64,000 nt of DNA from Dehalococcoidia bacterium (GTDB lineage: Bacteria > Chloroflexota > Dehalococcoidia > Lucifugimonadales > UBA2985), in NCBI GenBank assembly GCA_034422115.1, contig DAOUJW010000020.1:41352-105351 (forward strand), read 5' to 3'. Shown here piece after piece: positions 1,744 to 62,242 of this stretch (positions are counted from its first letter, which is position 1; every line of letters begins with the position of its first letter). The notes under the pieces were generated by a model. The model was not told the origin of the DNA and did no database searches. It worked only from the letters and a program-made list of their open reading frames with translations. A program made the translations under genes and the position numbers.

Positions 1744-1778
1744 AAGATACGGAAATGCTTAAGGCGTAGATGCGCCGA

Positions 1779-2063
1779 TCATATCCTGAATGCTATGGCA
1801 ATGAGCGCGCCAGTGACTCCAACGGCGCCAGTAGCCATGACGATGATCAGCGTGTTGAACTTGGCGTTCATCTCGCTGCGGAAGGCGTCTAGCTTGGCGT
1901 CTACATCGGTGCGGAAGGCGTCAAACTTGGCGTCCACGTCGGTGCGGAGGGCGTCAAACTTGGCGTCCAGGCGGGTAACGACCTCCGTCAAATCTCCAAG
2001 GCGGCTGTCCACCTGCTCGTATGCCCCTTCCAGTCTGCTAACTCGCTCTTCCATGGTCGTCAT
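1779..2063 (-). CDS. Small coiled-coil protein with 11-aa repeats and C-terminal TM anchor (DUF1640/CCDC90-like)
   Basis: Repeats DAKFDALRTDV / DAKFDAFRTDV / DAKLDAFRSEM (33-bp period), hydrophobic C-terminus, TAGACT-6nt-ATG leaderless context. Confidence 0.8.
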   Translation of the reverse strand: MTTMEERVSRLEGAYEQVDSRLGDLTEVVTRLDAKFDALRTDVDAKFDAFRTDVDAKLDAFRSEMNAKFNTLIIVMATGAVGVTGALIAIAFRI

Positions 2064-2151
2064 GAGAATAGTCTAGCATCAATGCCAATAGGCTTTCAAC
2101 ACCTTGCCTTTGGTCTAAGGCCAGTATAGGCAATGTTTCTTCAGATCCCTC

Positions 2152-3285
2152 TCAAATGAGAGTCCAAGTACCGCACCCACTCGTCTCAAACCCTGCATCT
2201 CCTGCTTCAATGGTGACTATCTGTCTGCCGCTGCCTATTTCGTTGGCAATGATTTCATCCAGACTCCCGCCAAAGCCGCTCAGGCGAGCCCAATAGCACA
2301 AGTCGCTTCCTGGCGCTGCGTAAGTCCCGGCTGTGATCTCCTCACCTACCACCCATTTACCGTCGGTAATTGCGTCTAAAGGCGTAAGTGCATCCTCTAA
2401 CGGTAGCCACCGGCCGCAACCACTTGTCTCAAACCCCGAATCTCCTGGGCCAATGGTGACTATTTGCCTGCCGCTGCTTAATTCGTTGGCAATGATTTCG
2501 TCCAGATTCCCGCCAAAGCCGCTCAGACGAGCCCAATAGCACAAATCGCTTCCTGGCGCCGCGTAAGTCCCTGGTGTTATTTCGGTACCCACAATCCAGG
2601 TTCCATCACCATAGCCTGGCTCCGGTGTAGGGATAGGGGTAGGAACAGAGGTAGGCGTGTCCGTCGGCACAGGAGTCGCAGTGGGCGTGTCCGTCGGCAT
2701 GGGGGGGTCGGTGGGTGTAGCCACTGGCGCTAGTGTATCATCGGGTGTAGCCATCGGCATTGGTGTGTCAACTGGTGCGGTCGTCGGCGAGATCGTTGCA
2801 ACCGACTTTTGACACTCTCGGAGGTTTATAGTACCCAAGATATAATTGCCCACCCTGCAAGTTGCAGTAAACTCTTGGTCCTTCTCCGCTCTTGCCTGTT
2901 CTTCCACAGGCAGGTCATGTAGAGCAATGTATTCAAGGAATAACCCTCCCAAAGTGCGATAGGAATCTAAATCAACAACGAGCCTCACTTCTCCCCCGTC
3001 TATCTCCCCAACAAGGCCCGTTATTGTTATCAATTTCCCCTGGTAATTCAGGTCATAGCGCGACGCGTTAGCTTCCCGTTCCTGATATAGCCTCTCAGCG
3101 CTTATAGATGGAGGAAGGTCAGGAGTTGGGGCAGCAACATCTGTCGCCGTAGGTGCTAGAGTTTCAGTAGGCGAGGCTGGCTGTACCGCGGTATCTGCGC
3201 TGGAGCACGCTGCAATGAGCAACATTAGTCCAAGCAGCGTGGAAATCAAAAACCAAGTTCCGACCGTTGACTTTGTCAACTGCAT
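2152..3285 (-). CDS. Accessory lipoprotein: OB-fold-like domain, Pro/Thr linker, two tandem ~81-aa Cys-containing domains
   Basis: Lipobox LIAAC; AAGGAGG RBS; PT-rich linker; two copies of GxWxVGxEITxGTYAAPGSDLCYWARLSGFGG...FETSGCG (243-bp period); AT-richer than the flanks. Confidence 0.85.
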   Translation of the reverse strand: MQLTKSTVGTWFLISTLLGLMLLIAACSSADTAVQPASPTETLAPTATDVAAPTPDLPPSISAERLYQEREANASRYDLNYQGKLITITGLVGEIDGGEVRLVVDLDSYRTLGGLFLEYIALHDLPVEEQARAEKDQEFTATCRVGNYILGTINLRECQKSVATISPTTAPVDTPMPMATPDDTLAPVATPTDPPMPTDTPTATPVPTDTPTSVPTPIPTPEPGYGDGTWIVGTEITPGTYAAPGSDLCYWARLSGFGGNLDEIIANELSSGRQIVTIGPGDSGFETSGCGRWLPLEDALTPLDAITDGKWVVGEEITAGTYAAPGSDLCYWARLSGFGGSLDEIIANEIGSGRQIVTIEAGDAGFETSGCGTWTLI

Positions 3286-3425
3286 GGGCGCCTCCTTGTG
3301 GCAAGGACTTTGGGCGCTTAGCAGTCATCCGCAATCCGGCGTGAGCCGCAAGGAGGCACAGGAATGCCCTGTCCTCGTCAATACTCACGCCTTTAGTGCT
3401 GAGTAGCGGTGACTGCTAAGTCACC
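3286..3425 (-). promoter_or_regulatory. Candidate structured 5' leader with anti-SD
   Basis: Nested inverted repeats 3317-3327/3410-3420 and 3338-3345/3384-3391, and a competing pair 3290-3302/3345-3357 covering the SD; TTGACA (3453-3458) with TAGGTT 18 bp downstream on the minus strand. Confidence 0.5.
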
Positions 3426-3561
3426 GATAACCTACCATCGAATTGGAGTTGGTGTCAATGAAATTCCCCTGCCACTTGCTGTCGGGGCGTTCTGTATCAA
3501 GAACGCGCCAGCGTCCTGTATAATGGGCGCAAGACACAACTCTGGATCAGGAGAACCCCCT

Positions 3562-3903
3562 ATGCGCTGGGTAATTAGGTCGAAGATACACAAGGCCACG
3601 GTCACCGAGGCCAACCTGGACTACGTGGGCAGCATCACCATCGACGAGGACCTGATTGACCTGACCGGCCTGTGGCCCGGGGAGAAGGTGTTGATAGCGG
3701 ACAACACCAACGGCGCAAGGCTGGAGACCTACGTGATTGTGGGCGATAGGGGTTCAGGCATCATCAGGATGAACGGGGCCTCCGCGCACCTTGTGAACGT
3801 TGGGGACGAGCTCATAATTATGGGCTATGAGCTGACGGACGTTCCCATTGAGGCGAAGAAGATCCTGGTGGACAAGCAGAACAGGTTTGTGCAGTACCTG
3901 TAG
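3562..3903 (+). CDS. panD: Aspartate 1-decarboxylase
   Basis: [22 protein letters not shown] with the G-S autocleavage site; NGARLETY; ATG at 3562 after GGAG. Confidence 0.95.
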
Positions 3904-60598: not shown

Positions 60599-62242
60599 TC
60601 ATTGCTCTCTGGTGTAGAGGGGTAGCGGATGCTGTCCGCCCTCTCTGATCACGCCCTTGGCCGTGCCCACGAACTCCCTGAAGAGGGGGTGCGCCCGGTT
60701 TGGCCTGGACAGAAACTCCGGGTGGAACTGGACGCCCACCATGAAGGGGTGCCCAACGATCTCGGATATCTCCACAAGGCTGCCGTCCGGCGACAGGCCG
60801 CTGGCTATAAGGCCGCCCTCCTGGAGCCGCTCGCGGTAGGCGTTGTTGAACTCAAACCGGTGTCTATGGCGCTCTTCAATCTCCAGCTTGCCGTAGGCCC
60901 TGGCCGCCTTGGTGCCGTCCACCAGGTTGCAGGGGTACACGCCCAGCCGCATGGTGCCTCCCATGCCTCGCACCGAAACCTGGTCAGGCATGAGGTCAAT
61001 GACGGGATGGGGAGTGTCCGGGTTGAACTCCGTTGAGTTGGCGTCGGGGGAGTTGAGGACGTGGCGGGCCATCTCCACCACCATCATCTGCATTCCCAGG
61101 CAGAGCCCCAGGTACGGGACTTTACGCTCCCGGGCGTACTGAGCCGCCTGGATCATGCCCTCCGTCCCGCGCGTGCCGAAGCCGCCGGGCACCACTATGC
61201 CGCTGGCCGAGTTCAAATACGGCTCCGCTCCGTCCCGCTCAATGTCCTCCGAGTGAACCCATGATATCTGCACGTTCCGGTTGTGGTGAAGCCCCGCGTG
61301 GCGCAGGGCCTCCCTCACCGATATGTAGGCGTCCGGGAGGTCTACGTATTTGCCCACCAGAGCTATGCTCAGGGGGTTGTCCAGCGCCTGCATGTGTTCA
61401 ACCATGTCTCGCCAGTCGGAGATGTCCATCTTTTGAGAAGTGAGCCCCAGGGAGTCGACTATCAGGTCACCCATGCCTGTGGCCTCCAGTATCAGGGGCA
61501 CTTCGTAGACGTTGGACACCGTGGGCAGCGGAATCACTCCGTGGTCCTTAACGTCGCAGAAGAGGGCTATCTTGCTCTTTATGTCCTCCGACACGGGGTG
61601 GTCGCTGCGGCAGATGATGGCGTCCGGCTGCACGCCTATGCCTCGCAGCTCTTTCACGCTGTGCTGGGTTGGCTTGGTCTTCAGCTCCCCGGTGGAGGAG
61701 ATGTAGGGGAGGAAGGTCACGTGGATGTAGAAGACGTTGTCCCGCCCCACCTCGTTGCGCATCTGGCGTATGGTCTCAAGGAAGGGGAGACCCTCGATGT
61801 CTCCAACGGTGCCGCCGACCTCCACCACAATCACGTCGGGGTCTCCGTCCGCGGCCAGGTTCTTGATTCGCTCCTTTATCTCGTTGGTGACGTGGGGCAC
61901 AGCCTGGATGGTGCCGCCGAGGAAGTCTCCGCGCCGCTCCTTGGATATGACGGAGCTGTATATCTGGCCCGCCGTGATGTTGGACAGGTAGCTTAGCTCC
62001 ACGTCTATGAACCGCTCGTAGTGGCCCAGGTCCAGGTCCGTCTCCGTTCCGTCCTCGGTAACGAACACCTCGCCGTGCTGGTAGGGGGACATGGTGCCCG
62101 GGTCCACGTTCAGGTAGGGGTCCAGCTTCTGGATGGAGACGGATATCCCTCTGCTCTTGAGAATCCGCCCAATGGAGGCGACGCTTATCCCCTTCCCCAC
62201 GGAGCTGACCACGCCGCCCGTTACGAATATGTACTTGGTCAT
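60599..62242 (-). CDS. pyrG: CTP synthase
   Basis: KYIFVTGGVVSSVGKG, DPGTMSPYQHGE, GLCLGMQ, QFHPE. Confidence 0.98.
   Translation of the reverse strand: MTKYIFVTGGVVSSVGKGISVASIGRILKSRGISVSIQKLDPYLNVDPGTMSPYQHGEVFVTEDGTETDLDLGHYERFIDVELSYLSNITAGQIYSSVISKERRGDFLGGTIQAVPHVTNEIKERIKNLAADGDPDVIVVEVGGTVGDIEGLPFLETIRQMRNEVGRDNVFYIHVTFLPYISSTGELKTKPTQHSVKELRGIGVQPDAIICRSDHPVSEDIKSKIALFCDVKDHGVIPLPTVSNVYEVPLILEATGMGDLIVDSLGLTSQKMDISDWRDMVEHMQALDNPLSIALVGKYVDLPDAYISVREALRHAGLHHNRNVQISWVHSEDIERDGAEPYLNSASGIVVPGGFGTRGTEGMIQAAQYARERKVPYLGLCLGMQMMVVEMARHVLNSPDANSTEFNPDTPHPVIDLMPDQVSVRGMGGTMRLGVYPCNLVDGTKAARAYGKLEIEERHRHRFEFNNAYRERLQEGGLIASGLSPDGSLVEISEIVGHPFMVGVQFHPEFLSRPNRAHPLFREFVGTAKGVIREGGQHPLPLYTREQ

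Follow-up and report, generated by a model that had tools for sequence, protein, structure and literature searches.

A new family of structured mRNA leaders in Dehalococcoidia and other Chloroflexota, with a conserved anti-SD segment complementary to a decoy and to the real Shine–Dalgarno sequence

Introduction

In translational riboswitch platforms, such as those of the add adenine riboswitch and thiM, an anti-anti-SD, an anti-SD and the Shine–Dalgarno (SD) sequence itself compete for pairing. The Escherichia coli rpsO/S15 and rpmI-rplT/L20 leaders form SD-trapping pseudoknots that are stabilized by protein, that of L20 being long-range, and in the type I toxin mRNAs tisB, zorO, aapA1 and hok translation is activated by 5' or 3' processing. 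The STAB-SD of Bacillus thuringiensis cryIIIA is single-stranded, binds the 30S subunit and stabilizes the mRNA. We know of almost nothing that has been described on post-transcriptional gene regulation in the Dehalococcoidia, which are abundant and mostly uncultured. Control can also be exerted through cleavage: the hbs mRNA of Bacillus subtilis is governed by RNase Y cleavage together with 5'/3'-UTR pairing (Braun, Durand and Condon 2017, PMC5737220).

Here, we describe a leader that precedes a lipoprotein gene in a 64,000-nucleotide stretch of DNA from an uncultured Dehalococcoidia bacterium (the window, to which all coordinates refer unless a contig is named). An initial annotation of this DNA had proposed that the leader is a switch able to sequester the SD of the gene, and had suggested a novel riboswitch, a thermosensor or a leader under antisense control. 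It is strongly supported that the leader is a member of a new RNA family, absent from Rfam, which occurs in the Dehalococcoidia and in other Chloroflexota. As a cis-acting translational leader the family belongs to a general kind that is already known; its decoy design is unusual.

The leader and its promoter

The leader sits in the divergent spacer between the lipoprotein gene and panD (3562-3903). The transcription unit has the following parts.

2152-3285, minus strand: downstream gene for a 377-amino-acid lipoprotein with the lipobox LIAAC, a Pro/Thr-rich linker and a weak tRNA_anti-like OB domain
3283-3424, minus strand: whole leader through the ATG, corresponding to positions 1-145 of the family covariance model
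3429-3434, minus strand: -10 hexamer TAGGTT after an 18-nt spacer, with a predicted transcription start at about 3422
3453-3458, minus strand: -35 hexamer TTGACA, at a position equivalent to that in 49 of 60 family members

As read from the sequence, the two hexamers (3458-3453 and 3434-3429) form the promoter that the initial annotation had placed here, and a TTGACA-17/18-TAnnnT promoter occupies the same place in 49 of the 60 family members, with -35 base counts among those 49 of T46 T45 G46 A42 C45 A27. The TAnnnT element ends 0-7 nt before the start of the covariance model, and the leader RNA is therefore taken to begin at the base of the first helix, P1. For the present copy this would put the transcription start site (TSS) near 3422, about 2 nt ahead of P1, and the promoter position predicts a 5' end likewise in 49 of the 60 members; many members have two to three further pairs beyond an AG bulge, which leaves no free 5' nucleotides. 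A TSS downstream of the structure had been named beforehand as an outcome that would speak against a leader; the promoter, and with it the predicted TSS, lies upstream. A consensus promoter scanner lists nothing at the leader promoter, because TAGGTT fits TATAAT at only three of six positions. No antisense promoter is evident at the leader.

The panD promoter, TGTATAAT, is located at about 3516-3523, outside the structure, and the structure therefore belongs to the lipoprotein transcript. Upstream of panD there are a 10-bp inverted repeat (3484-3493 and 3500-3509) and a 20-nt direct repeat (3487-3506 and 3511-3530), the second copy of which holds the extended -10 element TGTATAAT. These repeats (3484-3530 of the window) may be an operator or the common boundary of the two divergent promoters. 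Rfam detects no pan RNA motif upstream of panD.

Detection and distribution of the family

Three successive covariance models were built from homologues in relatives with compensatory changes. Model R3 scores the leader at 121.7 bits (E = 1.5e-27) and finds it as the sole copy in the window. About 90 distinct copies were detected by the covariance models, and sets of 60 and 27 were aligned and analysed. Of 151 genomes sampled from the same order, 41 contain the element; it is also present in 22 of 151 genomes sampled from the class Dehalococcoidia (mostly from other orders) and in nine of 151 in a phylum-wide sample of the Chloroflexota, each count including the present genome. There are one to nine copies per genome, and eight in the present one.

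The annotation had noted no resemblance to riboswitch consensus sequences. A search of 3000-3900 of the window against Rfam 15 (cmscan, E <= 10) gave only a 13-bit chance match to P26; for 20 other members the sole hits that reached gathering scores were two tRNAs, and the leaders themselves matched no family. Literature searches did not find a description of the motif.

BLAST of the present genome (2.3 Mb) returned a single match and no second copy, and a pattern scan of the genome found no further copies. The eight copies detected with the models have diverged from one another, and all of them are placed between a promoter and a start codon; a repeat or MITE situated mostly away from 5' UTRs, which had been listed among the outcomes that would count against a leader, is not what is found. 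Viral contigs gave three pattern matches, none of which is a family member. In metagenomes the pattern gave at least 120 matches in all; only five of the 80 that were examined are true members, and the pattern is therefore unusable as a measure of abundance.

In the present genome, G000, locus L087 on contig C19 has two diverged copies in back-to-back arrangement with 55 bp between them, at 61214-61373 (minus strand) and 61429-61554 (plus strand); the divergent genes encode a 337-amino-acid Pro/Thr-rich membrane-anchored protein and a product that is short or unclear. Genome G162 has identical leader copies at three sites (loci L055/L076/L077) and G079 has two pairs of identical copies at a constant distance of 642.6 kb (loci L051/L073), which points to recent segmental duplications carrying leader-gene cassettes or to assembly duplication.

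Structure of the leader

The layout shared by the family consists of a sigma-70 promoter, a 5'-end hairpin of about 32 bp with a decoy:anti-SD tip, the real SD and the start codon. In the present copy the elements are as follows.

3410-3420, minus strand: 5' arm of P1, CUUAGCAGUCA; forms 11 bp with 3317-3327 (100% complementary)
3317-3327, minus strand: 3' arm of P1, UGACUGCUAAG; partner of 3410-3420
3406-3409, minus strand: 5' arm of P1b, CCGC; pairs with GCGG (3329-3332) across a bulged A in the minimum free-energy (MFE) and centroid folds
3383-3391, minus strand: 5' arm of P2, GGCGUGAGU; nine pairs, all with compensatory changes
3338-3346, minus strand: 3' arm of P2, GCUCACGCC; partner of 3383-3391
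3368-3376, minus strand: decoy SD, GAGGACAGG, the 5' arm of apical helix P3; pairs with the anti-SD core in 51 of 52 member MFE folds
3345-3362, minus strand: anti-SD segment, CCUGUGCCUCCUUGCGGC; the most conserved stretch of the family, complementary to 3290-3302
3333-3337, minus strand: GGAUU, a further SD-like segment, located in the internal loop on its 3' side; pairs with AGUCC (3305-3309) in a three-sequence RNAalifold prediction
3290-3302, minus strand: SD segment, GCCACAAGGAGGC, with the core AAGGAGG at 3291-3297; 5 nt before the ATG
3288-3317, minus strand: local hairpin of the MFE fold, partly masking the SD, GCGCC..UCCUUG / CAAGGA GGCGC

The three nested stems that had been described, P1, P2 and P3, are all found. 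P2 has 8-9 bp (the 8-bp form being GGCGUGAG with CUCACGCC), and P3 pairs GAGGACAGG (3376-3368) with CCUGUGCCUC (3362-3353). At the P1b position G003 has CCAC/GUGG. P1, P1b and P2 together give a clamp of about 32 bp around the tip in the family. The region has an MFE of -68.1 kcal/mol, compared with -50.0 +/- 4.0 kcal/mol for shuffled sequences (z = -4.5; none of 200 shuffles is as good). In a calculation that included one 5' flanking nucleotide and 40 nt of coding sequence, the P1 pair probability is 0.99 here with a family mean of 0.89.

The 5' arm of P1 is palindromic in the present copy (3404-3414 with 3419-3429, 11 nt, 91%, within 3404-3429 of the window). Addition of three 5' bases gives an MFE fold with a 5' mini-hairpin, in which the 3' arm of P1 pairs with codons 2-3. 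This self-hairpin was rejected as the main fold, as it depends on the extra bases and is gone when the RNA starts near the predicted TSS. GGAUU (3333-3337) can pair with AGUCC (3305-3309) once P1 is open, and this pairing is present in the three closest sequences. Most members have a GGA or GGG motif at the same position, with a few covarying cases and weak support; family-wide there is only a loosely kept GGA/UCC motif, and GGAUU:AGUCC was set aside as a second family helix and is regarded as a weak feature.

The anti-SD has the family consensus GUGCCCCCUUGCG and reads GUGCCUCCUUGCG in the present copy. The real SD lies about 55 nt downstream of it, is very strong (CGCAAGGGGG in the family and CACAAGGAGG here) and fits the anti-SD better than the decoy SD does. 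The alternative 13-nt helix of the initial annotation, 3345-3357 with 3290-3302, is where it was said to be; it is 92% complementary and covaries across the family. Conserved primary sequence is limited to GG..GG on the 5' side of the tip, GUGCCCCCUUGCG on its 3' side, GGA just 3' of P2, and AGCCAAAAUCCUUGCCGCAAGGGGGUUCC. The start codon follows AGCCAAAAUCCUUGCCGCAAGGGGGUUCC by 5-8 nt, with an SD-to-start spacing of 6.4 +/- 1.1 nt. Other CCCCCTTGCG sites in the genome, considered as possible anti-SD-like sRNA genes, are all in coding, tRNA or ordinary SD contexts.

Two further kinds of leader were considered and rejected. A uORF or leader peptide does not fit: no more than about two thirds of the members have a start codon as the triplet that precedes the anti-SD, and the frames end from three to more than 28 codons later, so that neither start nor frame nor length is conserved; a two-codon GUG-ACU-UAG at the predicted 5' end of the present copy is not conserved in G003 or G026. 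An intrinsic-terminator attenuator was discarded likewise, as there is no terminator-like site in 3100-3700 and no U run after P1.

Covariation

The annotation had asked for covariation in homologous leaders, and it is abundant both in the nested stems and in the anti-SD/SD helix. It was assessed in a 63-sequence alignment and in 27 members outside model building, which come from other orders and classes and are independent of model training. The hairpin is paired in 91.8% of cells in the former (491 double-change cells versus 140 in shuffles, with none of 500 as high) and in 90.8% in the latter (185 double-change cells versus 54), values to be read with the caveat that fitting an alignment to a covariance model favours the structure in that model. 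Slid controls for the hairpin are about 45% paired. In P1 all 11 pairs show compensatory changes and 96% of cells are paired.

The anti-SD/SD helix is paired in 90.4% of cells in the 63-sequence set and 94.3% in the 27-sequence set, with nine and five compensatory pairs, respectively, well above slid controls. One of these (CG 44, UA 14) is located where the SD is GGGGG or GGAGG. The covariation runs into the 5' flank of the SD (pairs 153-253 to 167-242). The decoy SD covaries with both the anti-SD and the real SD: the (anti-SD, decoy, SD) triplet is C,G,G in 35 cases and U,A,A in six, with three discordant cases. G.U pairs are far above A.C pairs (136:44 and 73:17), and the pairing is therefore in RNA, on the sense strand.

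Energetics of the SD

The MFE fold of every member comprises the long hairpin and a short local hairpin, in which an upstream UCCU(UG) segment pairs with part of the SD. The modelled probability that the SD is locally paired is 0.99 here, with a family mean of 0.65, and the probability that it is paired with the distal anti-SD is close to 0. When the nested anti-SD/SD helix is imposed on the fold, the penalty is +14.5 kcal/mol here (family median +17). The idea that the mutually exclusive helix works as a switch is thus upheld in part: the pairing is conserved, but a two-state equilibrium is not supported, as the alternative lies 14-17 kcal/mol uphill in the intact RNA. Opening of the SD costs 8.5 kcal/mol here and 5.6 kcal/mol in the family (median), compared with 3.4 kcal/mol for 250 ordinary genes of the genome. 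Of the 59 members modelled, 50 shift the SD to pairing with the anti-SD, with a probability near 1, once the RNA has been shortened from its 5' end by 35-50 nt (by 10-20 nt in some members); the other nine never shift.

Downstream genes and genomic context

A strict lipobox is found in 27 of the 55 downstream ORFs (>= 30 amino acids) and variant lipoboxes in about six more; another N-terminal hydrophobic segment is found in 19 of the 55. The background rates in the present genome, taken from a crude ORF set, are 2.8% for the lipobox and 14.5% for the hydrophobic segment. The lipoprotein odds ratio is 34, with a P value that overstates the association since related sequences are not independent. 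Pfam hits on 47 downstream proteins include collagen repeats, trypsin-like proteases, beta-propellers, a DNA methylase and zinc ribbons, and most proteins have no domain. Export is the only theme that the downstream genes have in common. Genes for N6/N4 DNA methyltransferases follow the leader in several other Dehalococcoidia (L075, L178, L183, L170, L179 and L196), sometimes with an intervening 22-codon upstream ORF; the family is therefore not confined to exported proteins. The leader may mark accessory or horizontally acquired genes generally.

In three of the eight copies of the present genome (C17:179130-179280, C9:105771-105926 and C21:136660-136793) the leader start opens a short ORF, of 14, 9 and 58 codons, respectively, and the real gene begins 45-75 nt downstream with an SD of its own. 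These short ORFs may reflect translational coupling or decay of the original start.

The 1.74-kb block 1745-3482 consists of a coiled-coil gene, the lipoprotein gene, the leader and its promoter. The nearest relative (L090, in which panD is 98% identical) lacks 1745-3482 and its flanks abut; L092 and L095 retain only the coiled-coil gene. In G004 (L006/L093) a deletion of about 2104-3366, with no microhomology seen at the junction, fuses the coiled-coil gene to the leader's promoter and 5' half. The leader-gene cassette is accessory. The genome encodes RNase J and RNase III; RNase E/G was not found in it. CsrA was considered as a GGA-binding regulator and rejected, as a CsrA gene was not found in this 95%-complete genome.

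Proposed mechanism

The leader probably controls translation. As the anti-SD/SD helix is conserved and covarying, it must matter in some state. On balance we favour the explanation that, in this promoter-proximal leader family, the anti-SD is toggled between the decoy and the real SD and translation is controlled in this way. The 5' end of the transcript would coincide with the base of a hairpin (P1, P1b and P2) that is long and rigid. In the ground state the intact hairpin would clamp the anti-SD onto the decoy SD, and the short local hairpin alone would mask the SD, so that translation would be permitted and damped. With the anti-SD neutralized and the SD lightly masked, we read the intact RNA as translation-permissive. 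The fully paired 5' end would also shield the mRNA in an RNase J organism, as paired 5' ends of this type are known to do. In the OFF state the anti-SD would capture the real SD in a helix of 13-15 bp and translation would be blocked. We infer that the ON state is the default and that the OFF helix acts in vivo.

Two routes to the OFF state can be envisaged. The larger share of the weight that we give to this explanation, if rather less than half of it, goes to a long-range pseudoknot, in which the tail of the SD would invade the intact tip, probably with a stabilizing factor. Modelled as a pseudoknot over the intact clamp, the anti-SD/SD helix has a mean energy of -0.7 kcal/mol relative to the ground state (median +0.7, standard deviation 5.8), calculated without a pseudoknot penalty. 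A linker of about 16 nt would then have to span the stack of about 32 bp, unless the internal loop is a hinge. The correlation of linker length with stack height was discarded as a test for the pseudoknot, being an artefact of where P1 ends in the MFE fold. A somewhat smaller share goes to the route in which the clamp loses its 5' strand or has it occupied, as might happen after the onset of 5'-to-3' decay. The freed anti-SD would then capture the SD, and with the ribosome roadblock gone the mRNA would be destined for decay. Such a roadblock is described for Bacillus subtilis, where RNase J1 is blocked by ribosomes that initiate at a strong SD (PMC5737220).

Several points count against the toggling of the anti-SD. 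According to nested-structure thermodynamics, the OFF helix is never populated in the intact leader at any temperature; the pseudoknot route has the span of the linker against it, unless there is a hinge; and it is not obvious what advantage coupling to decay would bring for secreted proteins.

A wider reading, which we put forward tentatively and think rather doubtful, makes the family a Chloroflexota-wide post-transcriptional regulon for surface and accessory genes and the leader a new class of riboregulator, in which the rigid hairpin would be a scaffold, the toggle between decoy and real SD would run through the pseudoknot and a global factor would set the balance; an RNA-binding protein, an ion or an envelope-stress signal would be the candidates for that factor.

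Alternative explanations

The default could be reversed, with the SD already held by the anti-SD in a compact pseudoknot and a signal returning the anti-SD to the decoy, which would be the activating arm, to switch translation ON. The large asymmetric internal loop present in all members would serve as the hinge, the linker is A-rich, as in many pseudoknot loops, and the pseudoknot energy equals that of the ground state on average. However, the usual pseudoknot penalty of several kcal/mol would make this form less stable than the nested ground state, and the linker is short for the stack that is to be spanned; a leader that is OFF by default therefore seems unlikely to us.

It is also improbable that the leader is purely an expression cassette of strong promoter, 5'-terminal stabilizer hairpin and strong SD, with the anti-SD/SD complementarity as a by-product. 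The stabilizing 5' hairpins of ompA and S-layer mRNAs are established and lend this explanation some weight, as do the fully paired, promoter-anchored predicted 5' end in an RNase J organism and the masking of the SD in the ground state, which is merely about 2 kcal/mol above that of ordinary genes. The complementarity nevertheless reaches 5-8 nt past the SD core and covaries there, in a flank that has no ribosome-binding role, and no segment of the RNA is better conserved than the anti-SD. A mere stem would have no need of SD-like sequence.

The layout of anti-anti-SD, anti-SD and SD resembles that of translational expression platforms, and mutually exclusive helices of this type are present, with decoy:anti-SD and anti-SD:SD both conserved and covarying; the strong covariation and the lack of protein-coding potential would likewise suit a metabolite or ion riboswitch with the long hairpin as its aptamer. 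The internal loops, however, are conserved neither in sequence nor in length (60- and 27-member consensus), the conserved unpaired nucleotides are all SD-like or anti-SD-like, and the downstream genes are diverse and share no pathway. The clamp, at about -45 kcal/mol, is far too stable for the binding of a ligand to shift the balance. With no conserved ligand core, the novel riboswitch that had been suggested is not borne out, and we regard it as very unlikely.

An RNA thermometer, in which pairing of the SD would melt or form with temperature, is suggested by the partial pairing of the SD with the UCCU segment, which is reminiscent of ROSE or fourU elements. In the modelling, however, the SD becomes only slightly more accessible with temperature (unpaired fraction 0.17 at 15 C, 0.19 at 37 C and 0.24 at 55 C), and nowhere from 15 to 75 C does it shift to the distal anti-SD; the elaborate conserved hairpin would, besides, be unneeded. 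The modelling thus speaks against the thermosensor, which has hardly any probability left.

An element acting at the level of DNA (a mobile repeat, a recombination site or a segment invertible between the inverted 13-mers) is largely refuted and the least probable of all: the element is multi-copy and precedes accessory genes, and the cassette is missing in the nearest relative and half-deleted in another, but the copies within the genome are highly diverged with no second BLAST match, every copy is oriented between promoter and start codon, G.U pairs greatly exceed A.C pairs, terminal repeats and target duplications are absent and the three viral pattern matches are non-members.

Significance

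The accessory genes marked by the leader family encode, for the most part, surface lipoproteins and small membrane proteins, and DNA methylases recur among them. What is unusual in the design of the leader is that a decoy ribosome-binding site would neutralize a latent blocker held in a 5'-end hairpin, and toggling of the anti-SD gives a testable model in which translation would be coupled to mRNA integrity or to a regulator. The covariance model could be used to annotate TSSs and the true start codons of envelope genes in metagenome-assembled genomes, and the leader could serve as a portable expression or control module.

Comparison with known systems

The leader and STAB-SD both have an SD-like sequence in the 5' UTR at which translation does not start; unlike STAB-SD, the decoy here is paired to the anti-SD inside a hairpin and covaries with both the anti-SD and the real SD. 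It shares with the translational riboswitch platforms a three-way competition around the SD. In contrast to these, it has no conserved ligand core, what would be the 'aptamer' is a plain and very stable helix, and the genes are unrelated.

The ribosomal-protein leaders are similar in that pairing from a loop to a downstream segment involves the ribosome-binding site, which would fit the pseudoknot route. They differ in the genes concerned, which here are envelope and accessory genes and not those of autoregulated RNA-binding proteins, and the pseudoknot of the present leader is a modelled one. As in the type I toxin mRNAs, translation competence would be set by the state of the 5' end through long-range pairing at the ribosome-binding region; here, however, loss of the 5' end is predicted to silence the mRNA, the genes encode exported proteins of an ordinary kind and there is no sign of an antisense RNA.

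The hbs leader has neither a decoy SD nor an anti-SD and shows no sequence or structural homology to the present leader. It is nevertheless like it in that a highly structured 5' UTR is followed by a very strong SD in an RNase J organism, and in that translation initiation and the fate of the mRNA are coupled at the SD (PMC5737220), as the decay-coupled route would have it for the family described here.
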